Sequence record: PZ053912.1
DNA length: 64,000 nt
Origin: a phage
Direction: 5' to 3' (one strand)
A program made the translations under genes and the position numbers. The notes under the pieces are model-generated. The model saw nothing but the letters and a program-made list of their open reading frames with translations. It was not told the origin of the DNA and did no database searches. Position 1 is the first letter of the stretch. Each line of letters starts with the position of its first letter. Positions 17,553 through 62,852 of this stretch are shown one piece after another.

Positions 17553-17601
17553 CTCCTCTGGTTGATATGGTTATAATATCAAAACCAGAGGAGAAGTAAA
17601 C
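17553..17601 (-). promoter_or_regulatory. early promoter (GTTTAC-N17-TATTAT) with -10 enclosed by perfect 11-bp inverted repeat ctcctctggtt / aaccagaggag
   Basis: Read from sequence. Confidence 0.5.
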
Positions 17602-19077: not shown

Positions 19078-19107
19078 ATTATACTCCAACCATCCTTGGT
19101 TGTAAAC
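19078..19107 (-). promoter_or_regulatory. early promoter (GTTTACA-N17-TATAAT) within 46-bp cassette repeated at 60172-60217
   Basis: Read from sequence. Confidence 0.5.
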
Positions 19108-25811: not shown

Positions 25812-26009
25812 ATGTTTAAACTTCCATCGTTAATCAACGCTATTAAAGGCAATAAAAAGAAAACTGCTATCGCTGCAATAGTTGTAGGTGGCATTATTTC
25901 ATGGAACTTCGTGGTTGCGCCATTGTTAGTTGCCCATGGTATTATAGTTCCTTCTGTTCCATTGGATACTGTAGTTGATTTAGCCTTTGCTATTATAGGG
26001 CTTGTCTAA
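25812..26009 (+). CDS. small hydrophobic protein on the opposite strand (65 aa)
   Basis: Strong AAGGAG SD 5 nt upstream of ATG 25812; lies in a gap between 56 and 61. Confidence 0.4.
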   Translation: MFKLPSLINAIKGNKKKTAIAAIVVGGIISWNFVVAPLLVAHGIIVPSVPLDTVVDLAFAIIGLV

Positions 26010-27028
26010 ATCTTAGAATAACGAGATAATCTCATTTTAGCATGCAACCCACTTGAAATATTCTGTTTCATATATTCTAAAATTTCTTGTGGTGTTGCAT
26101 TTTCTTTCATTACCATATCATTCACATCCTTTGATCTCCATGGAGCTCGGTCCCAGAACATAACACGTTCGCCTGCATCAACTAATCGCTTCATGCGAGC
26201 TATAGTATCCGGATGCCTAGGTTCATTATCCATTACCCATACCCGACGTTCTTTAAATGGTACCACATCTAAATCTATTGAGCCGCCTGTAATAGCGATT
26301 GCATTGGGTATGAATAAACTATCAATAGGGCCTTCCATTACCCAGACGTCTCCTTCCTTAACACGTTCAACACCATAAATTTTTGTTGCAGACTCAAACG
26401 CTTTAATAGTGATATATTTCTGAGGAGCATCTTTACGAAGTGCACGTCCTTGGAATGACTCGGCCTTCCCATCTTTATTAAAAATAGGAATCACTAAACG
26501 TGGTTCGGGAATCTCTTTCTTATACGTACCAGGTTGAATCTTGTTGACCAATTTAGGCCATTCTAATGTGAACCATAATCTGTTCCACGATTCTTTAGGA
26601 ATACACCGAGACTTAACATATTTCACAATAGGATGCTCTTCGGGCAGCTTGTCCAGACGAGAACAAGACGGCAAAGAATTTATAGTCTTTTTCTCCGGTT
26701 CCGGTTTATGTTCAGGAACCTTTTCAATCTTTGGTTCCATTCTAGCTTTTTCTTTACGAACTTCCATTAGATATTCGCGATAAAGCTCTTCATCATACTC
26801 TTTTAAGTATCCGGAAATTGTATTGTGGTATTGACAATTATAGCAATGTACATTACCAGGAGTACCGCCATAATACCATCCACGAGCTTTCATTGCATCT
26901 GTCTGGGAGTCGCCACAAACTGGACAACGAAATGTTAATTTAAATGTACTTGAATTATTGATTTGTCTAAAACGAGGTAGGTGAGAAAACGCACGATAAG
27001 CAAATTCATTATCTATCCATTCAGCCAT
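26006..27028 (-). CDS. 61: DNA primase gp61
   Basis: 340 aa (T4 342); zinc finger CPVCGDS..CYNC; TOPRIM region. Confidence 0.9.
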   Translation of the reverse strand: MAEWIDNEFAYRAFSHLPRFRQINNSSTFKLTFRCPVCGDSQTDAMKARGWYYGGTPGNVHCYNCQYHNTISGYLKEYDEELYREYLMEVRKEKARMEPKIEKVPEHKPEPEKKTINSLPSCSRLDKLPEEHPIVKYVKSRCIPKESWNRLWFTLEWPKLVNKIQPGTYKKEIPEPRLVIPIFNKDGKAESFQGRALRKDAPQKYITIKAFESATKIYGVERVKEGDVWVMEGPIDSLFIPNAIAITGGSIDLDVVPFKERRVWVMDNEPRHPDTIARMKRLVDAGERVMFWDRAPWRSKDVNDMVMKENATPQEILEYMKQNISSGLHAKMRLSRYSKI

Positions 27029-27067
27029 AGTATTCTCCAGAGGCCTTAAATTAATAAGGCCATCATA

Positions 27068-27535
27068 TCACAACTTATTAATATTTACTTTAATTCGCTT
27101 TCTTTTCTTGGAAGGAATTTGTTCTGGACCTTTATTTACGACTGCACCTGAAGTAGTTCCTGATGCAATAGCTTGAGGACTACCGCCTGAATCGCCGGCA
27201 ACCATATCCTCAAATAAAGGGAGTTCTTTAAATATTTCTTTCTGCTGTTCTTCCGTAATGTTATAGCGTGAAGCTACAGCACTCCAGGCAGACATCATTG
27301 AGGCCATTCCATTAAGACCTGGAACAGTGCTCATCATTCGCTTCATTGAACGAACTGAAGCATGAAAAGGTGTATAAGCCGCTTTCTCTTCAGGAGTGGA
27401 AGGGCGTTTAAGAACACTTCCACGTTCATCGATGATTTTGGCTTCGTATGCTTTCCATTCGGTAAAAGGTTTTTGCATTAGTCGAATAAACTTATATGCG
27501 TAAACAGAATCTATTGCAGTGTTAATAATACCCAT
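27068..27535 (-). CDS. hypothetical protein (61.1 position)
   Basis: Trimmed to ATG 27535 with AGGAGG SD. Confidence 0.5.
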   Translation of the reverse strand: MGIINTAIDSVYAYKFIRLMQKPFTEWKAYEAKIIDERGSVLKRPSTPEEKAAYTPFHASVRSMKRMMSTVPGLNGMASMMSAWSAVASRYNITEEQQKEIFKELPLFEDMVAGDSGGSPQAIASGTTSGAVVNKGPEQIPSKKRKRIKVNINKL

Positions 27536-27554
27536 AGGTACCTCCTGAGTATAT

Positions 27555-27752
27555 TTAATCAATTACAAAGATTGCTTTGTCACCATTTATATCCGTGACT
27601 TCATATGTAGTGCCTTCATACTGTGGAATATTCCAAATTACACCATCATTAGCTTTTACGCTAATATGGCATTGGTGTTTTGAAACAACTTCATAATCTT
27701 CAAAACTTGTAAAAACACTAATTTTAGAACCCGTGCAAATTGCAATAGTCAT
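27555..27752 (-). CDS. hypothetical protein (65 aa)
   Basis: ORF track. Confidence 0.45.
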   Translation of the reverse strand: MTIAICTGSKISVFTSFEDYEVVSKHQCHISVKANDGVIWNIPQYEGTTYEVTDINGDKAIFVID

Positions 27753-27753
27753 T

Positions 27754-28413
27754 TTAACCTCGATTCATAAATGCATTAAATATTTGGTCATCAACAGAAA
27801 TTTCTAATTCGACTTCAATTGCTTCAGCCTTTTCTTCAGGTGGTAATTCGTATCCACACACTACAATTTTTTCATCGATATCAAAATATACAGAAGCAAT
27901 ATGATTAATGTTATTTTCGGTTAAGTCTAAATCAACATCAACATCTTTTTGACCTACACTTAAAGGATAACTAATACGGGTTATTTTATTATCTTTAACA
28001 AAGAGTCCGCCAACATACTCTGTACTACGTTTGAAGTTTACACGTTTCCGAAATGAAAGATATGATGCATCTTTACCGTGAGCTCGGCTCATAGGACATA
28101 ATGAATAGCTAGAATAAGAGATGTCAAATCCTACGCCTTCAATATGAGCCAACGTGTCATGAGTAAACCAATTATAATCATATGCCAAATCCATTATATT
28201 GTAATATGTGAAAGGCACAGGATTAACATCATATGTTGTACCTTTAAAATCTGCCCAGGCAACGATTTCATTATCTTTAACAATTACAAAAATTACACCA
28301 ATATGGTATCCGTTATTATTTTCATTCGGCGTTATATTATAACATTGTGCATTAGGAAATTTACCATATTTAAATGGCGCGTTTTTGTGCATATAATAAA
28401 TCATATTATTCAC
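27754..28413 (-). CDS. hypothetical protein (219 aa)
   Basis: ORF track. Confidence 0.5.
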   Translation of the reverse strand: MNNMIYYMHKNAPFKYGKFPNAQCYNITPNENNNGYHIGVIFVIVKDNEIVAWADFKGTTYDVNPVPFTYYNIMDLAYDYNWFTHDTLAHIEGVGFDISYSSYSLCPMSRAHGKDASYLSFRKRVNFKRSTEYVGGLFVKDNKITRISYPLSVGQKDVDVDLDLTENNINHIASVYFDIDEKIVVCGYELPPEEKAEAIEVELEISVDDQIFNAFMNRG

Positions 28414-28699
28414 CTGTGATTTCGGTTACGATATCTTTGTTATCGAAATTAGGGTCACAATACAAAACATAATTGTACTGCATGATACCGCCAGACTTAA
28501 GTTGTTCAACAACTTTATTAACCATATTAGGACGGTCTCGTTTAGTGATGTTCATGATATCAGAGAAGATTTGTTGTTCAACATCTTCTTGATTTGCAGT
28601 CATTGACCACTCACAGAGGTCTTTATCATAACCTGCTGTAACTGGAGCTGGTGCACATGATACTGCAAGTAAGATTGCTGCCAATGATAACTTTTTCAT
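28406..28699 (-). CDS. sp: Spackle (Sp) periplasmic superinfection-exclusion protein
   Basis: 97 aa with signal peptide; GYDKDLCEWSMTA..KRDRP..LKSGGIMQYNYVLYCD matches T4 Sp. Confidence 0.8.
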   Translation of the reverse strand: MKKLSLAAILLAVSCAPAPVTAGYDKDLCEWSMTANQEDVEQQIFSDIMNITKRDRPNMVNKVVEQLKSGGIMQYNYVLYCDPNFDNKDIVTEITGE

Positions 28700-28728
28700 T
28701 TTAACTCCTTAGTTGATTTGATAGGACT

Positions 28729-28758
28729 ACTATACTATAGTCCATCTATAATGTAAAC
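28729..28758 (-). promoter_or_regulatory. early promoter upstream of sp (GTTTACA-N17-TATAGT)
   Basis: Read from sequence. Confidence 0.45.
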
Positions 28759-28762
28759 AAGT

Positions 28763-29011
28763 TTATTCTTTTTCGCGAATAATAATTACTTGTTGAGGCT
28801 GCTGAGCAGATTTCTTTTCGGCAACGATAGACCAAATTAAAGTTCCAATCCAACCAACCATCGTCCAGTTAAAGAGTAAAGATACGAAGAAGATTGCTGT
28901 TGTGCTTTTTGTGCCACGAATAAGTGCGATTACCCAAGGCAACATGTAAATGATGATTGAACCAATACCTGCGATTAAAACTGCTACTGAACTAGCTACG
29001 AATAATTCCAT
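28763..29011 (-). CDS. imm: superinfection immunity (Imm-like) inner-membrane protein
   Basis: 82 aa, two TM segments; LPWVIALIRG..AIFFVSLLFNWTMVGWIGTLIWSIV resembles the Imm family core; adjacent to sp rather than between 42 and 43. Confidence 0.5.
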   Translation of the reverse strand: MELFVASSVAVLIAGIGSIIIYMLPWVIALIRGTKSTTAIFFVSLLFNWTMVGWIGTLIWSIVAEKKSAQQPQQVIIIREKE

Positions 29012-29072
29012 GTTAATTTCCTCTTGATTTGTTATGTTTATAGTATCTTGGTTTAACTTTAGTGTAAACCAA

Positions 29073-29441
29073 TTAATTAAATTTGTTTAAACGTTCAATA
29101 CACTGGATGTAGTTATTCGCGATTTGTTTCTGGGTAGGCTCTTTACCAGTTGTTTCAACATAGCGAATGAATGCGATTTCAGTAGCCTGTAAGCAATGTT
29201 CTTTAACGCGCTGTTCTTTTGACATAGCTACAGTATCAGAATCACGATAACGTTGAGCATGAGCATCAGCTTGAATCATTCGATTACCTACAGTAACCGG
29301 GTCTTCCACTTCAACTTTAGGTTGGTTGTACTGTTTAACATTAGGATTGTAAATCAGTTGGCCAACGTTATTAGGGATAAAGCCATGGGCACCACATCCG
29401 GTTAATCCAAATACCATTGCTAAAGCGATTAATTTTTTCAT
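29073..29441 (-). CDS. putative lipoprotein
   Basis: Signal peptide with lipobox LTGC. Confidence 0.55.
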   Translation of the reverse strand: MKKLIALAMVFGLTGCGAHGFIPNNVGQLIYNPNVKQYNQPKVEVEDPVTVGNRMIQADAHAQRYRDSDTVAMSKEQRVKEHCLQATEIAFIRYVETTGKEPTQKQIANNYIQCIERLNKFN

Positions 29442-29501
29442 TTCAATTTCCTCTGTAGTTGATAAAAAGATAGTAACACAGTATGTGGTGCTTGTAAACA
29501 G

Positions 29502-29759
29502 TTATTTTAAACTTTTGCGAAATTTGCGTTTTTCTTGACGAATCTGTCGTTTAGTCGGACGTACAGCAAATTTAACGAAGTCCACTTTGCCGTGTGGAAA
29601 CTTTTCAGATGCTTCACAGTCCATCATTAGTTCCCATCCTTCCAGAATAAGAGCTTTCCATTGTGTAGTTGATGCAAATTCGTATGTTGATGGTTTAAAC
29701 ACAGTTGAATACATATTATCCTCTGAAATCAGCTTCGAAAACTTTCTCGTCATTAACAA
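29502..29759 (-). CDS. hypothetical protein with basic C-terminal VRPTKRQIR motif
   Basis: ORF track 85 aa; paralogous tail at 57587..57784. Confidence 0.45.
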   Translation of the reverse strand: MLMTRKFSKLISEDNMYSTVFKPSTYEFASTTQWKALILEGWELMMDCEASEKFPHGKVDFVKFAVRPTKRQIRQEKRKFRKSLK

Positions 29760-29910
29760 ATGCTTTAACTAATGCTTTATTAATTTCAGCAAACTGCATG
29801 GTAGCCCACATGATATGCTCTTTGTCTGTTATATCCATGCGGATTTCTTTGGTAAACATACTACCGTTTTCAAACCAACCAATAAAAACTACTTTAGCAA
29901 ACTCTTCCAT
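29716..29910 (-). CDS. dmd: Dmd-like antitoxin (inhibitor of host RnlA/LsoA RNase toxins)
   Basis: 64 aa; VVFIGWFENGSMFTKEIRMDITDKEHIMWATMQFAEINKALVKAF; position between sp and 41 as T4 dmd; identification by recollection. Confidence 0.55.
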   Translation of the reverse strand: MEEFAKVVFIGWFENGSMFTKEIRMDITDKEHIMWATMQFAEINKALVKAFVNDEKVFEADFRG

Positions 29911-30228
29911 TTAGATTTCCTCACAGAACGCCCATTCAGCATGATAAACTGTAGCGCCTTTAGTATCATTCATTTGAACTACATCTACCGGAGAAATTAC
30001 TCGATAGAGACGTGGTTCACCTCCATAAGAGCGTGCTGCTCGTCCTGCATAAATCTTTGCTAAACCGATATCTTCAGTAAAGAATACACGATCCAAGTTT
30101 TTCTTACGTCCTGTTTCAGACAGAACTCCTGTTTCCTCAGGAGGACAAAGCATGTTTTCGATGTTAGCTGAACTACTTGAACCGTGATAAAAAATCTTAA
30201 ATTCTGCTTTACAATCGATGGTTTTCAT
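29911..30228 (-). CDS. hypothetical protein (105 aa)
   Basis: ORF track. Confidence 0.5.
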   Translation of the reverse strand: MKTIDCKAEFKIFYHGSSSSANIENMLCPPEETGVLSETGRKKNLDRVFFTEDIGLAKIYAGRAARSYGGEPRLYRVISPVDVVQMNDTKGATVYHAEWAFCEEI

Positions 30229-30254
30229 TTTGTTCTCCAGTAGTTGATAGGTCT

Positions 30255-30283
30255 ATAATAACACAACTACTGGAGAAGTAAAC
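30255..30283 (-). promoter_or_regulatory. early promoter (GTTTAC-N17-TATTAT) flanked by perfect 10-bp inverted repeat ccagtagttg / caactactgg
   Basis: Read from sequence; 27/28-nt match to 62808-62835. Confidence 0.5.
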
Positions 30284-30658
30284 TTAAAAACGTAATTTAG
30301 ATATATCTGCGTTGATTTCGTTTTGGTTTGCGTCGTATGCAATTAAACGAACCGCTTTAGATGGGTCATTCAATGCATAGAAATGATGGAACATTGCTCG
30401 AACGATATCACCATTTACGAGTTCTACCTGGATAGGAGAACCTTTTTCGAGTTGGAAATGTTCATAAGCTTTGATGGTTCGTAGATAATCAAGTTTTTGA
30501 TTTCCAGCTCCAACTATTTGTACGATACGTTTGCCCATGTTTTCCATACGAGATACAATAGTTTTAGGAGCAAGAATAACGTAGGTTGCCAGCGGAGAAA
30601 CTACTTCAACAGTTGTGTTTTCGGTGATTGCAGTAAAAATTGCTTGAGACATATTCAT
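30284..30658 (-). CDS. hypothetical protein (124 aa)
   Basis: ORF track. Confidence 0.5.
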   Translation of the reverse strand: MNMSQAIFTAITENTTVEVVSPLATYVILAPKTIVSRMENMGKRIVQIVGAGNQKLDYLRTIKAYEHFQLEKGSPIQVELVNGDIVRAMFHHFYALNDPSKAVRLIAYDANQNEINADISKLRF

Positions 30659-30687
30659 AATGTTTTCCTCTTGGTTGGTGTAAGTTC

Positions 30688-30717
30688 ATCATATCATGCC
30701 TAGAGGAAGATGTAAAC
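30688..30717 (-). promoter_or_regulatory. early promoter (GTTTACA-N17-TATGAT)
   Basis: Read from sequence. Confidence 0.4.
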
Positions 30718-30724
30718 CCCGAAA

Positions 30725-30745
30725 GGAGACCGAAGTCTCCTTTTT
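30725..30745 (-). terminator. CUUCGG hairpin (ggagaccgaagtctcc) downstream of gene 41
   Basis: Read from sequence. Confidence 0.5.
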
Positions 30746-30746
30746 A

Positions 30747-32189
30747 TTAAAATTTTAACTCATTAGCTAAGCTATCTAGGTCAGCACGTGTTGCTTTGGC
30801 TTTACCTACGCGTTCCGTACGATTCACCTCTGCCTTACGCATCTGAGCACCTGCGTTTTCATTTACTGTGTTAGGTGTGTTCATGCCTTCTTGCTCAATC
30901 TCAATCCATTTCTGGTTGCCTTTACGTACACCCATTAGGAATTTATTCCATTTATTCTTATCACCATATCGTGATTTGATTTGTTTGATAAGTTGTTGTT
31001 CAGCTTGTGCAAGTTCTTCGGTTTCAATTACGGCCAACATGAAATCTGCCGTTGCTGGTAAACCTGCTGATTCTGCAATATCGCTCATGTTCATATCCGA
31101 AGCATCCCATGCTGCACGTCCTACTTGAGCTGCAGTCCATAGAACTGTTTCAGATTCTACTGCTAATGCACGAAGTTCTTCTGCGATAGCTTTAACTAAT
31201 GTGTAGCTATTTTCAGTGTAAACTCTGATACGACAAGACCCACAAATGCCTAAGTAATCAACCATGATTACAGATGGCACAAAGTTCTTCTTAAGTTTTA
31301 ACTCATTAAGCAATGCACGAAATGTATTAGCATTAGCTCCACCAGTAGGATACTGTTTAACTACTAAACGTCCTAATGTTGTTTTTGAACGCCATTTTTC
31401 CATCTTGGCTTTATATTCAGCATAAGATACGTTACCATCATCGATATCATCAAGTGATACGTCAAGCATGTTTGCATCTATACGCTTAGCACAAACTTCT
31501 TCGGCCATTTCCATGGAAATATAAAGAACATTATGACCTGTTTGAAGATAATCTGCAGCAAGTGAACAAAGGCCTAAAGATTTACCGACGTTAACACCAG
31601 CCATTAAAACGTTTAGTGTACCTGTTTCTGCACCGCCTTTAGTTATTTTATTCAGAATGTTTAATTTGAACGGGACCTTACGTGCTTTGTTCAGATAAGA
31701 AAGCCAGCGTGCTTCATAGTCTTCCATCCAGTCATGTCCAACATAACTATCAAACGAAATTGAAAGTGCTTGACGCATAATATCAGGAATAGCTCCTACG
31801 TCAGGCATTTTCTTGTTACGTTGTTCTGGAGGTAGTTCAGCATTAGACTGAATCTCAATGATTTTGGATGTAGCATTATACATCGCTTTTTGCTGGACAT
31901 ATTTCTCAGTTTCTTTAACCAACCATTCGTGGTCTTCAGGAGTATCAGCCAATTTTTCAATTAGGTCTGAAGTTCCTTTATACTCTGCTTCAGTTAAAGA
32001 ACTGTTATCTAAAGCCACCTTTAATGCATTGATAGACGGCATTGCATTATATTCGTTAACGTGGCTCTTTATAATTTTAAAGACATTTTTTGCCGGTCCA
32101 CGCTCAAAATACTCAGAATCCATATAAGGCCAAACCTTAGAAAAATAAGCCTGGTCATATACTAGATGAGACAAAATAATTTCTACCAC
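30747..32189 (-). CDS. 41: replicative DNA helicase gp41 (DnaB-like)
   Basis: 480 aa (T4 475); Walker A GVNVGKS, RecA-like C-terminal domain. Confidence 0.9.
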   Translation of the reverse strand: MVEIILSHLVYDQAYFSKVWPYMDSEYFERGPAKNVFKIIKSHVNEYNAMPSINALKVALDNSSLTEAEYKGTSDLIEKLADTPEDHEWLVKETEKYVQQKAMYNATSKIIEIQSNAELPPEQRNKKMPDVGAIPDIMRQALSISFDSYVGHDWMEDYEARWLSYLNKARKVPFKLNILNKITKGGAETGTLNVLMAGVNVGKSLGLCSLAADYLQTGHNVLYISMEMAEEVCAKRIDANMLDVSLDDIDDGNVSYAEYKAKMEKWRSKTTLGRLVVKQYPTGGANANTFRALLNELKLKKNFVPSVIMVDYLGICGSCRIRVYTENSYTLVKAIAEELRALAVESETVLWTAAQVGRAAWDASDMNMSDIAESAGLPATADFMLAVIETEELAQAEQQLIKQIKSRYGDKNKWNKFLMGVRKGNQKWIEIEQEGMNTPNTVNENAGAQMRKAEVNRTERVGKAKATRADLDSLANELKF

Positions 32190-32198
32190 GATAACTCC

Positions 32199-32561
32199 TT
32201 AAAAGAATTTAAATTTTTTCTTGGTCCGTTCATTAAAAGCTTGTTGTACTTGCATTGTAACACATTTTTCAACATGTGGTGCAAGTTCTGCTTTTCTATC
32301 CTGGTCAAGAACTGCAAAGTCCATTACGATTTTACCATCAACCCAGTCTAGTTTTGTAATATAGACTATATGATGAGAACCGTCTTCAAGTGTAATCAGA
32401 ATCTCTTGAATGACATTTTCCATTGCTGAACGGATAATTTTAAGAGATTCATTAAACACTCGTTCTTTGCGAATGTCTTCCCCTTCCGAAGAAGGGGATT
32501 CATCAACGATTTCTAGATTTAAATCATCGAGATTATTCATCGAAATCTTCCATTTCGTCAA
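32199..32561 (-). CDS. 40: hypothetical protein at gene 40 position
   Basis: 120 aa; synteny between 41 and uvsX. Confidence 0.45.
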   Translation of the reverse strand: MTKWKISMNNLDDLNLEIVDESPSSEGEDIRKERVFNESLKIIRSAMENVIQEILITLEDGSHHIVYITKLDWVDGKIVMDFAVLDQDRKAELAPHVEKCVTMQVQQAFNERTKKKFKFF

Positions 32562-33804: not shown

Positions 33805-34353
33805 TTAACGAGCCCATTTGATAATTTCTGTAATCAAATAATTACGTTCGCTTGCATTAAATCCTATAACTTTGTTAGCACCGTCATGATTAAGTAATTG
33901 ATACGTTTGGATTTTGTTATGAATTGCAAACTCTTCAAAATATGAAATGACTGTATTAAAACCGAATGAAGACAAAGTAATAAGATCGTCTTCAAAACTT
34001 TCAGTCATTTCGTTACGTGTTAAAATAATTGTGAACACATCATGGTTTTGGCAAAGACGAACATAATCCTGTTCATAAACGTCAAGAACCGAGTCCGCAT
34101 CTTGTCGAATACGTCCATAAACCCAGTTACTAATATATCCACGGTCTAACAGATAAATCTTAGTAGGGTCTAAATAATTCAACATCGTTTCGAAACAGCC
34201 AACTTCATTTCGAGACTTAACATCGAAACGTCCATCAACTGTTCGTTTAGGGAAATCAATCTTTACATATCTTTCACTAATTTCCATTATGTCATTAATG
34301 AAAGTTGTTTTACCAGCATTATCCGGGCCATCTACTAAAATAATTTTAGCCAT
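33805..34353 (-). CDS. P-loop nucleotide kinase, thymidylate-kinase-like
   Basis: 182 aa; Walker A GPDNAGKTT and LLDRGYISNWVYG (DRY-type NMP-binding motif); sits where T4 has b-gt. Confidence 0.5.
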   Translation of the reverse strand: MAKIILVDGPDNAGKTTFINDIMEISERYVKIDFPKRTVDGRFDVKSRNEVGCFETMLNYLDPTKIYLLDRGYISNWVYGRIRQDADSVLDVYEQDYVRLCQNHDVFTIILTRNEMTESFEDDLITLSSFGFNTVISYFEEFAIHNKIQTYQLLNHDGANKVIGFNASERNYLITEIIKWAR

Positions 34354-34354
34354 T

Positions 34355-35254
34355 TTATTCCTCGATTACGACATCTTCATATTTAGGTATATTATACGGC
34401 GAAGAAATTAAAGCGTTAAAGTAGATGAACTCGCCAAGACCTGGATGGAATACTTCTTCAGGATTTTCGAAATATTGAATCTTCGGCCGTCCTTTAAGAA
34501 TTTGATAGTACTCAGTTTTAGTTGGTTTAAAAATTCGAATCAGCGCTTCTTCAGGATACTTATTTCTGTCGAAGCTATTATTTGGATCGGTTATATAAAG
34601 CGGTTGGCCTAATTGAATTGCACATTCAACCACTTGTTCAAAACGATAGCACGGGTCACTAATTCGAAATGGATGAAAAATACCATCTAGATGAATAGGA
34701 GCCAAATCACCTACAAGACGCTGCATGATGGAAGGACGTATAACTTTCTGGGTTACGATAATCTTATTACCATCTGCACCTGCGTTAACCAGCACTTCTT
34801 TTTGACGTTCATTCAACACAGTAGTTTGAAGTGAACGATTAACCGACAACATATCAGTTTTTAAGAATTCGTCAATATAAAAACGTGGTTTATTAGGGTC
34901 TGCAGTGATATTGAAATTGAATTCCACATCAAAAGCGCCGTCATATCCGGTGATATCTGTGATTAGAAAATCACAATCATAATAAGCAATTAATGAATCA
35001 ACCACAAATTCATTTTCAGACCAGAAATATTTACGAGTGTTATACGCGTTATCTTTATACCATAATGGAACAAACTTAAATTCTGGAAAAAGACGTTCGC
35101 ATTCTTTAATATCAGATGCATTACGTGGATATGTAATCACATCACCCGGATTAGCACGGTGCAAATGAAGTTGGAAGTTGCCATCCTTAAGGATAGCATA
35201 CTGTCCAGTTTCATAAGACCGCATACTCAAGATAGGTACGCGGAAATTAGCCAT
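34355..35254 (-). CDS. hypothetical protein (299 aa) at T4 b-gt locus
   Basis: ORF track; no recognisable motif by eye. Confidence 0.5.
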   Translation of the reverse strand: MANFRVPILSMRSYETGQYAILKDGNFQLHLHRANPGDVITYPRNASDIKECERLFPEFKFVPLWYKDNAYNTRKYFWSENEFVVDSLIAYYDCDFLITDITGYDGAFDVEFNFNITADPNKPRFYIDEFLKTDMLSVNRSLQTTVLNERQKEVLVNAGADGNKIIVTQKVIRPSIMQRLVGDLAPIHLDGIFHPFRISDPCYRFEQVVECAIQLGQPLYITDPNNSFDRNKYPEEALIRIFKPTKTEYYQILKGRPKIQYFENPEEVFHPGLGEFIYFNALISSPYNIPKYEDVVIEE

Positions 35255-35970
35255 TAGTCAAGGAATCCTTTAACATAATCAAAATCACGTTCAAACACAT
35301 GGGCACTTACCATGGTATGAGTATAATCACCAACTTCTACACCACATTCGTTAGCGATATAATGAAGTAATTTTCCTTGGAGATAAAAATCCAACTGCAT
35401 AACAACAGCACAGTTCTGAGAACGCATATGACAGTGGGTATAAAGCTTACCATCACGAATATAATAAGTCACTGAGTCAGTACATGGATATTCAAGTGTT
35501 TCGTCCGAATCAAGCAAAGCCTGATCTGAACTTTCAAGAATTTGAAACACAACTCTTCGAGAGTTAGGTTTCTCTTTAAGTTCTTTGAGAAGAGCTGGTA
35601 ATTGGGCCGCAATGCGAGGACCATAGAAAGTGTTGAAGTTCGCCGGCAAAACATCTGATTTTGGTTTAGAAATAAATTTAGCGACATTAGGATATGCCTT
35701 AAACGCTTCTTCTGCGTTGGTACCACCAGAAATCATAAACTTCCAGAAGTCTTCGGCATATTCATAAGAGATGCGGTTAATACGTGGGTCGGTCATTTTG
35801 AATGATGATGGAGTGTCAACAACTACTGTCATAGACCCAATTTCATTACAACGTCCAATACGAGAATCAGTTACGAATTCCGGGTTTTCTAAAATTTCAC
35901 GATTGACTGCTTTAAATGCGGTTTGAAAATCTGCGGCTTTGATATATTTCATTGTGTTATGTTTTCCCAT
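35254..35970 (-). CDS. 42: dCMP hydroxymethylase gp42 (thymidylate synthase fold)
   Basis: 238 aa; GAGGT SD; CTDSVTYYIRDGKLYTHCHMRSQNCAVV resembles T4 gp42 catalytic region. Confidence 0.75.
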   Translation of the reverse strand: MGKHNTMKYIKAADFQTAFKAVNREILENPEFVTDSRIGRCNEIGSMTVVVDTPSSFKMTDPRINRISYEYAEDFWKFMISGGTNAEEAFKAYPNVAKFISKPKSDVLPANFNTFYGPRIAAQLPALLKELKEKPNSRRVVFQILESSDQALLDSDETLEYPCTDSVTYYIRDGKLYTHCHMRSQNCAVVMQLDFYLQGKLLHYIANECGVEVGDYTHTMVSAHVFERDFDYVKGFLD

Positions 35971-36153
35971 GTTTACCTCAATACAATTTATTATATACTC
36001 AATTCGTAAAGCTTATTTGAATTTCTTGACAATGTTGATATAACGTAAAGCTTCAGCATCGATACTTCCAAGAACACTATGAAGAAATGCATCAGCGTAG
36101 TATTCCAATTGAACAGGTTTCTTTAATCACTTTAGCCGCTTTAGTTTCAAACA

Positions 36154-36177
36154 GGCCCTTATGGGCCTGTTTAAGAA
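36154..36177 (-). terminator. perfect 10-bp stem hairpin (aaacaggccc / gggcctgttt) downstream of the sugar cassette
   Basis: Read from sequence; weak U-tract. Confidence 0.4.
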
Positions 36178-36249
36178 TTTGTTCGTTGCTGTTAATTTTC
36201 ATAGTCAAAATCTCTTCATTAAGTTGGTGGTTAAAAGTTTTTCTAGAAA

Positions 36250-37410
36250 TCATTCCGGGTACCTCAAAGCGTCATCAGAGTTAGTTATATCAATAATAGA
36301 TATAGAGTTTTCTGCTAACCCATTTTTAGATAACTGACGTTTATAATATCTTTCACAATATGTACACGTCGTCCCGCAGATTTCATTAGCACAATCGAAA
36401 TCTGGATGTCTGAACCACCTTTTTTCTAAAAAGCCGTCTAACAAAGAGGTTTCAATATTTACTGTATGTGAAAACTCAATTTCGTTTTCAAGAGTGAAAA
36501 TAGTCTCTAAAGGCTTCCACAGTTCTAACAAATTACCTTCAAACTTTTCAGAAGCGTATGCTTCAAGAACTTTCAAAATGTAGTCTGTGCTACCTGTACG
36601 TCCTGAAACTTTGAATTGAGTGATACCAATATCATTATAAAGTTTCAAATCTTGAGGACGAACAAAACGAGTTCTCAACCAGTTAAATGGGTCTGTATCA
36701 CGAGCTTTAATACAGTGCTGCATAGGATATCCGTTTAAGGATTTAGCATCATCAGCTGTAACATCAGTACTATGGAAAATATAGCAAGAGTCACGATAGC
36801 TACAATGTGTTGTATACCCTTTACCAGCATTAGAACAGAACTCATTTACAAGAACTTCAAATATTATATTGTTCTTATTGCAAAACTCTGCTGCACGCTT
36901 CAGGAAAGAAACTGAACGGTTCTTATGAATTCCACAGCAGACCTTTTTGATATTATATTGGTCATGCAAATATTTGATTTGAGTTACAGCATCGACATGT
37001 AGAATTGTTGAAACTTCAATCTCAATGTCTTTATTGACTTCACGAACAATTTCCATAACAACAGGGTTAGCGATAGTAATACGCCATACGCCTATTGACC
37101 AAAGATACTGAACATAATCCTGAATAGCTTTCTTCTTCCACTCAACTAGTTCTCTTTTTGAACCAGGATTTATCGTGTTGAGTGTATAGTTAAAGCAAAT
37201 ACCTAATTCGTTACAACGTTTAACGTAATCTTCTAACATCTTTTTGTCAACGTCAGGAAGCCTAAAATCAGGTCTGGCTGCTACAAAAGCCATTTCTCTT
37301 GTAGAGCCGTATACTTCATTTATCAAGCTATTAGGATAAGTTTTATTGAGCTCTACGATTTTATCAAGAAGAGCTAAATCAAAATTCGTTCCGATTTTAA
37401 AAGTATTCAT
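36250..37410 (-). CDS. Cys-rich putative metalloenzyme, possibly peptidase-U32-family-like (Fe-S?)
   Basis: 386 aa; IFEVLVNEFCSNAGKGYTTHCSYRDSC and C-terminal CANEICGTTCTYC (Cx4Cx3Cx2C) cluster; co-operonic with the sugar genes. Confidence 0.4.
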   Translation of the reverse strand: MNTFKIGTNFDLALLDKIVELNKTYPNSLINEVYGSTREMAFVAARPDFRLPDVDKKMLEDYVKRCNELGICFNYTLNTINPGSKRELVEWKKKAIQDYVQYLWSIGVWRITIANPVVMEIVREVNKDIEIEVSTILHVDAVTQIKYLHDQYNIKKVCCGIHKNRSVSFLKRAAEFCNKNNIIFEVLVNEFCSNAGKGYTTHCSYRDSCYIFHSTDVTADDAKSLNGYPMQHCIKARDTDPFNWLRTRFVRPQDLKLYNDIGITQFKVSGRTGSTDYILKVLEAYASEKFEGNLLELWKPLETIFTLENEIEFSHTVNIETSLLDGFLEKRWFRHPDFDCANEICGTTCTYCERYYKRQLSKNGLAENSISIIDITNSDDALRYPE

Positions 37411-37467
37411 TTTTTTACATCTCGCGTTAATTGATGCGATGGTTTTTTGCAGGTCTTACTTAAATTA

Positions 37468-37869
37468 TTATAGATTCGGTTTATATGATTTAAATGTTTC
37501 GAATTCGCCTTTATTCATAAGAGCTTTGAATTCGTCAGGACGCATAGCTTTGTCGTCGATAATCCAATCATATACTGGTTTATGTGTTAGCAAATTATGG
37601 TACTTCAAGCCAATGTTTGCCAAGTTCTGAATCAGACTTGGGAGAATGTCAATTGCTATACGACCAGGACCTACTGACTTCATACCACGAGCAGTGTAAA
37701 GCGTTATGGTATGCCCTGCATCATACAGGGCATTAATGGCAGACACCATTTCGACGTCTGGTTTGAAGTTCACGTAATCACGATTGTTATTCCACTCTGT
37801 TATACAATCATCGACATCAAAACAAAGATTAAGCATGTTTTCTACACGGTGCATTAGATTCGTTCCCAT
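37468..37869 (-). CDS. putative HAD-like phosphatase
   Basis: 133 aa; N-terminal FDVDDCIT resembles HAD motif I (DxDx[TV]); short for the family. Confidence 0.4.
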   Translation of the reverse strand: MGTNLMHRVENMLNLCFDVDDCITEWNNNRDYVNFKPDVEMVSAINALYDAGHTITLYTARGMKSVGPGRIAIDILPSLIQNLANIGLKYHNLLTHKPVYDWIIDDKAMRPDEFKALMNKGEFETFKSYKPNL

Positions 37870-39542
37870 TGATGAGTGATATCGCCACCGATTGGACGAT
37901 AGGAAACACCAGTTTCTTTATCAGTTAGTACCCATTTACCAGGATTTTTTGTAATCAGAGTAGCCGTTACAGGTTCTGCTACGTCATAACTAATAGAGCC
38001 GTCTTGAAGTACACGGCCCATGTTACGTAATTGCTTAGTCAGAAGTTCCATACCTTTATAATATGCGGCTACCGCTTTAAGTGGATTATTCTTGAAATAA
38101 CCACCTAATGCAATCCAGATAATTGCCACTGCCAAATGATGATACTCGTTAAACGAACTCATCTTTCCATATTTGTAAACTAATGGATTGATGTTAATAG
38201 TCACATTACAAGTTGTTTCATCAATAGTAAACTGTCCCCAGGTCGGATTAGCATTGAATTCATCATAACCTGAAACAGCATAAAGCACTTTAGCTTCATC
38301 GTACAATTTTGGCCCGTAAATCTTGGTTTCGCCAAAATATCCACGAGGGTCGATAAACTTGACTTCACCATTATCAGTAATCATAGTATTACTGAAGTTC
38401 GGGTCACCATGAATAACAGAGTACTGTCCCTGAGAACGGTTATGATAACGAATAAGGTGTTCTAAAGCTTGTTTCAACATTGGCTTCAGACGTCCAATCT
38501 TAGTGTAGTTCACATGTGTGATTTTACCGAATGAATCAATCAATGGTTGAATACTTTCACAACGATCAATAACTTTCGTATAGAACTCTTTAGTGAAATC
38601 ACGGCGAACAGTTTCAGGACTTACAAAATAAGTGTCTGTGCTGAATTTCAGTGCATCTAAAATTGCATCAACAATTTGTGGACGAGCAAGACTCGATTTG
38701 GATTTAATATATTCAAATGCCGGCTTACCTTTAATGCGTTCCATAATAAAGTGGCCGCCAGGATGATAACTTACAATCCGTGGAACTGAATCTGATTTAA
38801 CTTTCTTATACCAATTGACTTCATCTTTTTGAAGTGCAACGCCCTGTTCTGTTAAAGCAATCTTTGTTACCGTTTCTTCGCCAATTTCAACTGCATTAAA
38901 ACTACGATTAAGTTCACGAACTTCATGAGCTTTTTCAAGTTTAGGCATATCACCAAGGTCGATGATATTCATAAGCTCTGATTTATTGAATGCGCTGCCG
39001 TAAAGGAATTCTACGAAATCACGTCCTTTGCAGTATTCATGAATTTCCTCATCAGTAGAACCCATATAGAATTCCCAGTCTTTGAACTGATAAATTCCTA
39101 CAACATTACCACCTGTTGAACCTACATTAGTGATATTTTCACCGTCGAAATTATATCGACATTCGTCACCCTTAACATAGATTGCGTTAACATTCCAAGA
39201 CCACGAACCAAAATCAGGAATAATATCACACCAGTTAACAATTACATTATGGCCGTCTAAATCTTTGTGCAATTTAGCAAGAGCATAAGCAGAACCATAC
39301 GCTTCATCAACTGTACGAATAGTCACATTGAACCCTTCTTGCTCACAATAAGCTCGAACAGTTTCAGCAAATTTTGAATGAACTACTACAATAATTTCAT
39401 CTGCGCCAAGGTCAGAATAAATTGTATACAAATTGCTCAGAATAGTGTCTTGTTTATAGTTAACAAGCACCTTAGGAATATGATGCGTTATTGGATACAA
39501 ACGAGTTGCCAGTCCAGCACCAAGAATAACAGCTTTTTTCAT
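37854..39542 (-). CDS. bifunctional sugar-1-phosphate nucleotidyltransferase / sugar kinase
   Basis: 562 aa; N-terminal ILGAGLATRLYPIT (G-x-G-T-R-L NTP-transferase motif); C-terminal HGDPNFSN...FIDPRGYFG (APH/choline-kinase-like catalytic loop and DFG-like). Confidence 0.7.
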   Translation of the reverse strand: MKKAVILGAGLATRLYPITHHIPKVLVNYKQDTILSNLYTIYSDLGADEIIVVVHSKFAETVRAYCEQEGFNVTIRTVDEAYGSAYALAKLHKDLDGHNVIVNWCDIIPDFGSWSWNVNAIYVKGDECRYNFDGENITNVGSTGGNVVGIYQFKDWEFYMGSTDEEIHEYCKGRDFVEFLYGSAFNKSELMNIIDLGDMPKLEKAHEVRELNRSFNAVEIGEETVTKIALTEQGVALQKDEVNWYKKVKSDSVPRIVSYHPGGHFIMERIKGKPAFEYIKSKSSLARPQIVDAILDALKFSTDTYFVSPETVRRDFTKEFYTKVIDRCESIQPLIDSFGKITHVNYTKIGRLKPMLKQALEHLIRYHNRSQGQYSVIHGDPNFSNTMITDNGEVKFIDPRGYFGETKIYGPKLYDEAKVLYAVSGYDEFNANPTWGQFTIDETTCNVTININPLVYKYGKMSSFNEYHHLAVAIIWIALGGYFKNNPLKAVAAYYKGMELLTKQLRNMGRVLQDGSISYDVAEPVTATLITKNPGKWVLTDKETGVSYRPIGGDITHQWERI

Positions 39543-39583
39543 GTTGTGGTCCTCATTGGTAAGTAGGAGTATTGTACACTATT

Positions 39584-39727
39584 CTAGTTAAAGCATTCAT
39601 ACTTTGCTTGTAGTCCAATCATAATCCATCCAATTACAAGTGTTGGAATCATTACTGGAGCCGTTAAGCTCCAGTAGATAGTCATGACAAGCATCAATAG
39701 TAAAAGTCCTATTGTTATTGCTTTCAT
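39584..39727 (-). CDS. small hydrophobic membrane protein (47 aa)
   Basis: Manual translation MKAITIGLLLLMLVMTIYWSLTAPVMIPTLVIGWIMIGLQAKYECFN; ATGA overlap with SIS gene stop. Confidence 0.35.
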   Translation of the reverse strand: MKAITIGLLLLMLVMTIYWSLTAPVMIPTLVIGWIMIGLQAKYECFN

Positions 39728-40359
39728 TGTTCGCCTCGTAACATGGCACCTAGTGCACCGCCAGGGTGGAACTTAAGGAAGTCATTAGAGGTAAATCCAC
39801 GCTCAGACGAAAGGTTGATAGCAAACGTATCGATAAGCGCTAACAACAATGTAGTGGACATGGTCGGAGCCAGAGAATTCTCATCAACCTCTACTGCGAT
39901 GCCTGTACAGAAAGAGTAATCAAAAAGGGCTTCATTTTCTTGTGGAATGTCCGGGTTACAATGCAACAGAATCTGTTTGACGTTCGGACGAATCATTTTA
40001 AGATGCTTAGCCACGCCTATCATTTCTTCAGTTTTACCAGAACGACTAATATGAATCAACACATCATTAGGCGCAATGAATCCTGCATCACCGTGAGAAT
40101 AATGCCCAGTGTTCAAGTACATACTCGGGATACCGAGTGAAGCAAATGTCTCAGAAGCTTTAGTTGCAATATTAGCATTCTTACCAACACCTGTAATAAT
40201 TACTCGGCTTTCATAATTACTAAGTCCTGGGCGTCGAAGAGTTTCTAGAATAGCATTATAACGAGCAGGGTTTTGACTAATTACTTTGGCCATAGCGGCC
40301 AAAGAAGAAGCTTGTTTTATGATTGCGTCAATAGCGATAGTAATAGGAGTAGTTTTCAT
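39724..40359 (-). CDS. SIS-domain phosphosugar isomerase, KdsD/GutQ-like (putative arabinose-5-phosphate isomerase)
   Basis: 211 aa; VIITGVGKNANIA, HGDAG, SRSGKTEE, APTMSTT, FHPGGALG align with KdsD/GutQ SIS motifs; lacks CBS domains. Confidence 0.75.
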   Translation of the reverse strand: MKTTPITIAIDAIIKQASSLAAMAKVISQNPARYNAILETLRRPGLSNYESRVIITGVGKNANIATKASETFASLGIPSMYLNTGHYSHGDAGFIAPNDVLIHISRSGKTEEMIGVAKHLKMIRPNVKQILLHCNPDIPQENEALFDYSFCTGIAVEVDENSLAPTMSTTLLLALIDTFAINLSSERGFTSNDFLKFHPGGALGAMLRGEQ

Positions 40360-60185: not shown

Positions 60186-60215
60186 ATTATACTCCAACCA
60201 TCCTTGGTTGTAAAC
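60186..60215 (-). promoter_or_regulatory. early promoter, copy of the 19064-19109 cassette
   Basis: Read from sequence. Confidence 0.5.
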
Positions 60216-62823: not shown

Positions 62824-62852
62824 ATAATAACATAAACATAGACCTTGTAAAC
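62824..62852 (-). promoter_or_regulatory. early promoter (GTTTAC-N17-TATTAT), ccagtagttgataggtctataataaca cassette
   Basis: Read from sequence; near-identical to 30237-30263. Confidence 0.5.

Follow-up and report, generated by a model that had tools for sequence, protein, structure and literature searches.

The imm.1-imm-sp locus of an RB69-like phage: probable Mosigvirus copy of three T4 early envelope genes

The phage sequence PZ053912.1 (64,000 nucleotides, analysed over its whole length and called the window here) carries three small genes, imm.1, imm and sp (spackle), at 28406-29441 on the minus strand. This locus is very probably the Mosigvirus copy of three early envelope genes known from T4, standing at a derived genome position and served by separate early promoters. 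An original prediction, made from the sequence alone, had described it as a superinfection-exclusion island in which sp, a relocated imm and a lipoprotein gene are clustered under one promoter. The 6.2 kb around the locus are 97-98% identical to genomes of Mosigvirus, with 151 records covering at least 80% of this stretch, and by sequence the window is a Mosigvirus, an RB69-like T-even coliphage.

Every gene around the locus is on the minus strand, and plus-strand open reading frames (ORFs) of the region are at most 50 amino acids (aa) long. Exactly three ORFs were found within 28406-29441, namely 28699-28406 (97 aa), 29011-28763 (82 aa) and 29441-29073 (122 aa), and the interval had been delimited exactly, from the final base of the sp stop codon (28406) to the first base of the lipoprotein ATG (29441). 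Transcription runs 61.4 > imm.1 > imm > sp > 61.2/adfA. All three genes exceed curated Pfam thresholds, and the window has no second copy of imm, sp or imm.1. No Rfam family matched across 26000-32200, and the repeats in the region comprise nothing meaningful besides promoter/leader units. The features of the locus are as follows, in the direction of transcription.

29502..29714, minus: 61.4 (DUF7279), the flank upstream of the insertion; its T4 counterpart runs directly into the sp promoter and sp
29470..29499, minus: early-promoter motif 5' of imm.1, GTTTAC-N18-TACTAT, beginning 2 nt past the 61.4 stop
29073..29441, minus: imm.1 orthologue, 122-aa predicted lipoprotein (PF17578/DUF5481, phrog_1754, alignment to T4 Imm.1)
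29040..29069, minus: early-promoter motif 5' of imm, GTTTAC-N18-TACTAT, conserved in RB69 and mar005P1
28763..29011, minus: imm (immunity to superinfection), 82 aa (PF14373, phrog_1039, 64% to T4 Imm)
28729..28758, minus: early-promoter motif 5' of sp, GTTTAC-N18-TATAGT, the same in RB69 and mar005P1
28406..28699, minus: sp (spackle, gp61.3 orthologue), 97 aa (PF25676, phrog_1586, 66% to T4 Sp)
27754..28404, minus: 61.2, that is adfA (anti-DarT factor A; PF23813, E=1.4e-120; 66% to T4 gp61.2)

Family membership and predicted roles of Sp, Imm and Imm.1

The family assignments originally given to Sp and Imm were borne out by a Pfam search, as had been proposed for the superinfection immunity family. 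Sp matches PF25676 (T4_Spackle) with 145 bits (cut-off 27; E=1.1e-42; profile residues 1-96 of 96) as well as phrog_1586 and PDB 6x6o (E=1.4e-39), and it is 66% identical to T4 Sp with 97/97 residues aligned. Its predicted layout is a signal peptide followed by a 75-aa periplasmic helical domain. T4 Sp has a Cys29-Cys81 disulfide and contacts the gp5 lysozyme with main-chain atoms of Ser32-Ala35 and with the Gln37 and Asn76 side chains (PMC7677548). These residues (Cys29, Cys81, Ser32, Met33, Thr34, Ala35, Gln37 and Asn76) are identical in the window protein and in the Sp of three further genera, and both cysteines are invariant in an alignment over five genera. N-terminal sequencing showed that T4 Sp is cleaved after residue 22 (PMC7650644); VTA/GYD in the window lines up with AMA/GYD in T4 (the slash marks the cleavage site), the cleavage itself being demonstrated for T4 only. 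Binding and inhibition of the gp5 lysozyme, and the resulting exclusion, are known for T4, and we carry them over from the 66% identity and the conserved contacts. Sp would be exported and its 22-residue signal peptide removed, after which it would bind the lysozyme domain of the tail-spike gp5 of a later phage and inhibit it allosterically, leaving the cell wall undigested. The window does not include the cognate gene 5. Relative to T4 Spackle (gp61.3; PDB 6X6O, 6XC0, 7CN6), the length of 97 aa, the signal peptide, both cysteines and the gp5 contacts are the same, whereas the C-terminal helix differs (DIVTEITGE in the window, NIIAEVVGE in T4), which may tune specificity for the cognate gp5.

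The Sp signal peptide also contains a lipobox-like Ser14-Cys15 (window 28655-28660, codons 14-15) that is invariant in five genera, reading AVSC in the window and LASC, VASC or VSSC in the other four phages. Sp was considered as a lipoprotein on the basis of this motif, and the idea was dropped because N-terminal sequencing places the cleavage of the periplasmic T4 Sp after residue 22 (PMC7650644).

Imm, the 82-aa ORF at 29011-28763, contains the string LPWVIALIRG..FFVSLLFNWTMVGWIGTLIW (LPWVIALIRG...WIGTLIW). It matches PF14373 (Imm_superinfect) with 56.9 bits (cut-off 27.9; E=1.8e-15; profile 1-42 of 42) and phrog_1039 with E=1.2e-30. The protein is collinear with T4 Imm, to which it is 64% identical over 82/83 residues, and its hydropathy profile is that of a small hydrophobic inner-membrane protein. 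According to a 2026 preprint, T4 Imm co-purifies with the tape-measure protein gp29, its R33A and W50A variants show lower exclusion, and plasmid-expressed Imm by itself excludes T4 (bioRxiv 10.64898/2026.03.06.709160). R33 and W50 of T4 align to R32 and W49 of the window protein, so both are kept. Extending the T4 preprint from the 64% identity and these two residues, Imm in the inner membrane would bind gp29 of the incoming phage, and the DNA-entry channel would not form. HK97 gp15, which targets the tape-measure protein, is cited in the same preprint; it is likewise a membrane protein and blocks DNA entry that depends on the tape measure (bioRxiv 10.64898/2026.03.06.709160). The specificity of Sp and Imm should track the cognate gp5 and gp29, and Mosigvirus-T4 pairs could be used for mapping the determinants of cross-exclusion.

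RB69 has been reported to be without lysis inhibition, unlike T2, T4 and T6, and sp is also the rapid-lysis gene rIV (PMC6832632). Both points would fit a shift in the function of Mosigvirus Sp and Imm, for example to lysis control, that is reflected in their new context. This is highly improbable, considering that the contact and functional residues are kept in both proteins and that their 64-66% identity to T4 equals the level of core genes (gp43 62%, uvsX 68%).

For the third gene, the 122-aa ORF at 29441-29073, the lipobox originally described is genuine: the protein opens with MKKLIALAMVFGLTGC and has a canonical LTGC at residues 13-16 (Cys16). What does not stand is its status as a new neighbour of imm, because it is by homology an orthologue of T4 Imm.1, which is already directly upstream of T4 imm. 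The protein scores 37 bits against PF17578 (DUF5481; cut-off 27) and matches phrog_1754 with E=1.1e-28. It is 32% identical to T4 Imm.1 in a full-length alignment that also aligns the lipoboxes (LTGC in the window, LAGC in T4), and the label Imm.1 is already present in the RB69 and mar005P1 records. The same phrog_1754 takes in T4 Imm.1 (6e-43), gp27 of Salmonella phage S16 (5e-46) and a protein of Klebsiella phage Lion_ER11 (1.8e-15). All four phrog_1754 proteins (window, T4, S16 and Lion_ER11) bear a lipobox and are encoded immediately upstream of imm, the position that imm.1 also has in RB69.

C83 and C114 of Imm.1 are invariant in a five-sequence alignment. The window protein and T4 Imm.1 share the lipobox and two C-terminal cysteines, and differ in that the extra Cys pair of T4 is not in the window protein. 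In an AlphaFold2 (AF2) model, residues 1-39 form a disordered tether and three helices span 48-120, with a predicted local distance difference test (pLDDT) score of 75-89. The E. coli lipoprotein sorting rule, which concerns Asp at position +2, bears on outer-membrane anchoring. Asp follows the lipid-modified Cys in 0/4 of the proteins (window, T4, S16 and Lion_ER11), and Imm.1 is therefore predicted by this rule to be anchored in the outer membrane. Imm.1 would be a lipoprotein with a predicted outer-membrane tether and a disulfide-capable three-helix domain.

A single-sequence search for Imm.1 homologues found 3 proteins and a five-sequence profile found 19, all of them phage-like save one weak 86-aa Xanthomonas protein; NCBIfam gave signal-peptide noise only. 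Two metagenomic DUF5481 members (P0002 and P0012), which share 45-48% identity with Imm.1 of the window, have a signal peptide that ends in AHA and are without the lipobox Cys, and a soluble periplasmic version of Imm.1 thus seems to exist. Another phage lipoprotein, Llp of T5, reportedly blocks the receptor FhuA and is used for exclusion. Imm.1 did not match Llp or Cor except for one match confined to the signal peptide, and for neither HK97 gp15 nor T5 Llp was a sequence or fold relationship to the window proteins found.

Early promoters and transcription of the locus

The gaps between the genes are 60 bp (61.4/imm.1), 61 bp (imm.1/imm) and 63 bp (imm/sp) long, and each has one GTTTAC-N18-TA(C/T)(T/A)(A/G)T motif about 25-35 nt before the Shine-Dalgarno sequence and ATG. 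Across the window, GTTTAC-N17/18-TAYNRT occurs at 16 sites, all on the minus strand, where 0.52 ± 0.67 are expected from dinucleotide-preserving shuffles. The three motifs are conserved in RB69 and mar005P1, with the sp motif identical there. The consensus of T4-type promoter early stem-loop (PeSL) promoters is TTTACW-N17-TAYWAT (PMC4122927), to which two of the three sites conform exactly (TTTACA-17-TACTAT) and the third, with TATAGT, with one mismatch. In the sp promoter, an inverted repeat (GGACTA..TAGTCC) overlaps the -10 element. The three genes would thus be expressed from separate early promoters, not from one. Where a single operon would have one promoter and none internal, there are three motif sites, one per gene (29499-29470, 29069-29040 and 28758-28729), so the original proposal of a cluster under one promoter is not supported. 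All three genes would be made in the first minutes of infection, each from its own sigma-70-type early promoter.

A terminator scan gave no terminator-like sites in the three gaps, which fold weakly (-4 to -13 kcal/mol, z +1.2 to -1.8). As there are no intervening terminators, read-through transcripts are also expected, and the sp transcript would run on into adfA because the 61.2/adfA ATG is 1 nt beyond the sp stop.

Read-through from the imm.1 promoter would, in the absence of terminators, give a tricistronic RNA, which is one ground for seeing in the three genes a single co-regulated operon, a dedicated superinfection-exclusion island gathered by selection under one promoter. The genes moreover lie next to each other on one strand and are all directed to the envelope, and the arrangement is stable in ~150 Mosigvirus genomes. 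We nevertheless regard this as distinctly unlikely, given the conserved early-promoter motif of each gene. The T4 imm and sp loci both carry early-promoter motifs though they are 6.5 kb apart, and adjacency would therefore add little co-regulation; imm and sp are also separate in T4 and in single phages of four other T4-like groups. Furthermore, sp is coupled to adfA, and the 41-61 interval is not dedicated to exclusion, as the island label implied, considering that it also holds dmd, adfA and other accessory genes that are unrelated. These include two genus-specific ORFs, which, like dmd, each have their own promoter motif. The region is best seen as a hyperplastic region of general early accessory genes, in which each module has its own promoter, and not as an exclusion operon.

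Further observations concern the leaders and promoters. The Shine-Dalgarno sequence in the sp leader (TAAGGAGTT, window 28704-28711) contains GGAG, as does that of T4 sp, and the imm and imm.1 leaders of the window have GAGGAA without GGAG. GGAG is the motif cleaved by the T4 RegB endoribonuclease (PMC1702504), and the difference between the sp leader and those of imm and imm.1 may mean different post-transcriptional shut-off. Many early promoters have a spacer complementary to the downstream leader or Shine-Dalgarno sequence (window 30228-30282, minus, and also 17573-17601, 62824-62852 and 28729-28758), for example TTCTCCAGTAGTTG ... CAACTACTGGAGAA (19 nt, 89%). RNA reading through from upstream could sequester the ribosome-binding site in this way, and locally started RNA would not. 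Near-identical promoter copies recur in the window, e.g., at 19078-19107 and 60186-60215.

Derived position and relocation of imm.1-imm

As originally noted, imm is next to sp and not between 43 and 42 as in T4. In T4, transcription runs 43 > imm.1 > imm > 42 and, separately, 61.4 > sp > 61.2. We compared the synteny of imm and gene 43 in T4 and in a single phage from each of four further T4-like groups. Salmonella phage S16 (Gelderlandvirus), dhabil (Dhakavirus), UPEC07 (Gaprivervirus) and Klebsiella phage Lion_ER11 all have imm directly after gene 43; an Imm.1-type gene is present between the two in S16 and Lion_ER11 and absent in dhabil and UPEC07. No imm is present at the sp locus of JD18 (Jiaodavirus), VR25 (Gaprivervirus) or WG01 (Dhakavirus). 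The Mosigvirus position of imm is derived, because the sampled groups have imm after 43 and sp loci without imm. Within Mosigvirus, the gene order is already known: it has been in GenBank since 2003 (RB69) and is shared by ~150 related genomes. The RB69 record (AY303349) has 61.4, imm.1, imm, sp and 61.2 in the window order, as does mar005P1. In RB69 (AAP75937-AAP75940), the gene order, the gene lengths (294, 249 and 369 nt) and the promoter sequences between the genes are the same, and the differences are at strain level only (~2-3%).

Two comparisons with T4 delimit what moved. As in T4, sp lies between 61.4 and 61.2 and is tightly coupled to 61.2, but the window has imm.1 and imm inserted between 61.4 and sp. 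The inserted block is 742 bp long and consists of imm.1, a 61-bp promoter/leader, imm and a 63-bp promoter/leader, at a site that in T4, VR25 and WG01 is a single 60-bp promoter gap. The order imm.1 then imm and their equal orientation are shared with T4, where the pair is between 43 and 42 with one promoter and an 11-bp gap that is without an early-promoter motif; the window pair, between 61.4 and sp, has a 61-bp gap with a second promoter motif. On the T4 side, we also noticed an unannotated hydrophobic 49-aa ORF (MKSKIIAALLLILMIIISIYY...; T4 AF158101 26227-26376, minus) in the 153-bp imm/42 gap, with an ATG overlapping the imm stop codon. A hypothetical protein is annotated at this position in several other Tequatrovirus records, and the ORF is without a counterpart in the Mosigvirus cluster.

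The sugar cassette that was originally said to occupy the T4 imm locus is indeed there. The 43-uvsX interval of the window (33805-40359, minus) has no imm copy and no beta-glucosyltransferase, and contains the following genes.

39724-40359, minus: SIS isomerase
37854-39542, minus: nucleotidyltransferase and kinase fusion, 562 aa
36250-37410, minus: U32-like protein
35254-35970, minus: divergent gp42 with a thymidylate-synthase fold, 25% identical to T4 gp42

The corresponding RB69 module has been proposed to supply the sugar donor for arabinosyl-hydroxymethylcytosine (hmC) (PMC6024577), and the cassette is a candidate RB69-type arabinosyl-hmC sugar-supply module. Displacement of imm by this cassette is not required. 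In dhabil, a "capsule biosynthesis protein" (by annotation) and large hypothetical genes follow imm; because imm is still next to gene 43 there, the gene content of the interval need not displace it.

In the reading that we prefer, a derived Mosigvirus copy with separate promoters, imm.1-imm would have left the ancestral site after gene 43 as a unit and entered the promoter gap that separates 61.4 from sp. The move would most plausibly have occurred by recombination between stereotyped early-promoter cassettes, i.e., PeSL-type shuffling, which has been proposed and partly demonstrated for the early-promoter cassettes of T4-like phages (PMC2839356). At the upstream junction, the 61.4 stop and AAAATAACTGTTTAC recur unchanged in the 61.4/sp gap of T4; the shared AACTGTTTAC after the 61.4 stop is suggestive of a recombination trace at this left junction. 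Past GTTTAC, the sequence (AAG..., TACTAT, TATCAACTAC) resembles the T4 imm.1 promoter. Oddly, the imm promoter of the window and the T4 sp promoter are reciprocal best matches, though with a score of only 14 (vs 8-9 for the next best). The locus resembles PeSL cassettes (Arbiol 2010, PMC2839356; Comeau 2014, PMC4122927) in its stereotyped early promoters flanking small accessory genes in a hyperplastic region and in matching their promoter consensus; it differs in having no strong stem-loop in the three gaps.

Several points weigh against the reading as a whole or in part. No experimental work on the Mosigvirus proteins was found, their function being taken from homology to T4, and the promoters are predicted from motifs. 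Support for the recombination route is weak: none of the three gaps has the strong stem-loop by which a PeSL is defined, and the T4 imm/42 gap is without a matching early-promoter motif that would allow simple excision. In addition, the promoter similarities are low and generic (at most 14 of 54), with near-identical promoter sub-classes recurring across the window, and crossover points are not mappable.

The imm.1-imm linkage, retained through the translocation, hints at a functional tie of Imm.1 to Imm. In its strongest form, Imm.1 would be a third exclusion component or an Imm accessory, and imm.1-imm a functional two-gene module that moved together for this reason. A phrog_1754 lipoprotein directly before imm in T4, Mosigvirus, S16 and Lion_ER11 would fit, as would the two invariant cysteines and a pairing that outlasted translocation, although plain physical linkage would likewise move both genes. 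The absence of imm.1 between gene 43 and imm in dhabil and UPEC07 argues against it, and so does the exclusion of T4 by plasmid-borne T4 Imm alone (bioRxiv 10.64898/2026.03.06.709160). Imm.1 has diverged from T4 far more than its neighbours (32% identity vs 57-85%), as might a protein facing a co-evolving partner, but fast divergence fits relaxed constraint equally well. Fold searches with Imm.1 gave generic helical bundles only, a literature search found no papers on it, and no exclusion role is known for it. We consider this unlikely, if somewhat less so than the operon. The same small chance applies to the more specific proposal that imm.1-imm is a conserved mobile module between early-promoter slots and that Imm.1 acts from the outer-membrane side on the tail tip or the tape-measure protein. 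If true, T-even exclusion would have three layers: an outer-membrane-tethered lipoprotein, periplasmic Sp and inner-membrane Imm.

Returning to the derived Mosigvirus copy, imm.1-imm would act as a portable unit with a derived position in one genus, and would illustrate in nature how promoter slots are shuffled in T4-like genomes. The lipoprotein Imm.1 is conserved and unstudied, and its persistent linkage to imm gives a concrete hypothesis, now that a preprint has identified the target of Imm as the tape-measure protein.

Neighbouring genes and accessory cassettes

The exclusion gene sp and the counter-defence gene adfA would be on one transcript, as in T4, where sp and 61.2 overlap by 1 nt. 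Further upstream, the 41/orf124 gap (30659-30746, minus) contains a strong hairpin with a UUCG loop (AAAGGAGACUUCGGUCUCCUUU; -22.8 kcal/mol, z -2.65), which is followed at once by GTTTAC-N18-TATGAT, and reads as a textbook example of a canonical PeSL cassette.

Between orf124 and dmd is orf105 (105 aa, 30228-29911, minus). T4 lacks it in the part examined (17-32 kb), in which dmd comes directly before 41. T4-like phages of Enterobacter, Pantoea, Serratia, Proteus, Acinetobacter and Vibrio have relatives that are at least 62% identical, and the name "ADP-ribosyl transferase" is used by one source. No sequence match to orf105 was found in Pfam, NCBIfam or PDB. Its AF2 model (pLDDT 86.5) has one clear PDB fold match by Foldseek, the rifampin ADP-ribosyltransferase Arr (9iaf; probability 1.00, TMq 0.62, E=9e-3), with weaker matches to the ADP-ribosylating toxins PltA, ParT and LT. 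Invariant residues include H15, G16, Y60, R63 and E103, and orf105 is, from its modelled fold, a candidate mini ADP-ribosyltransferase.

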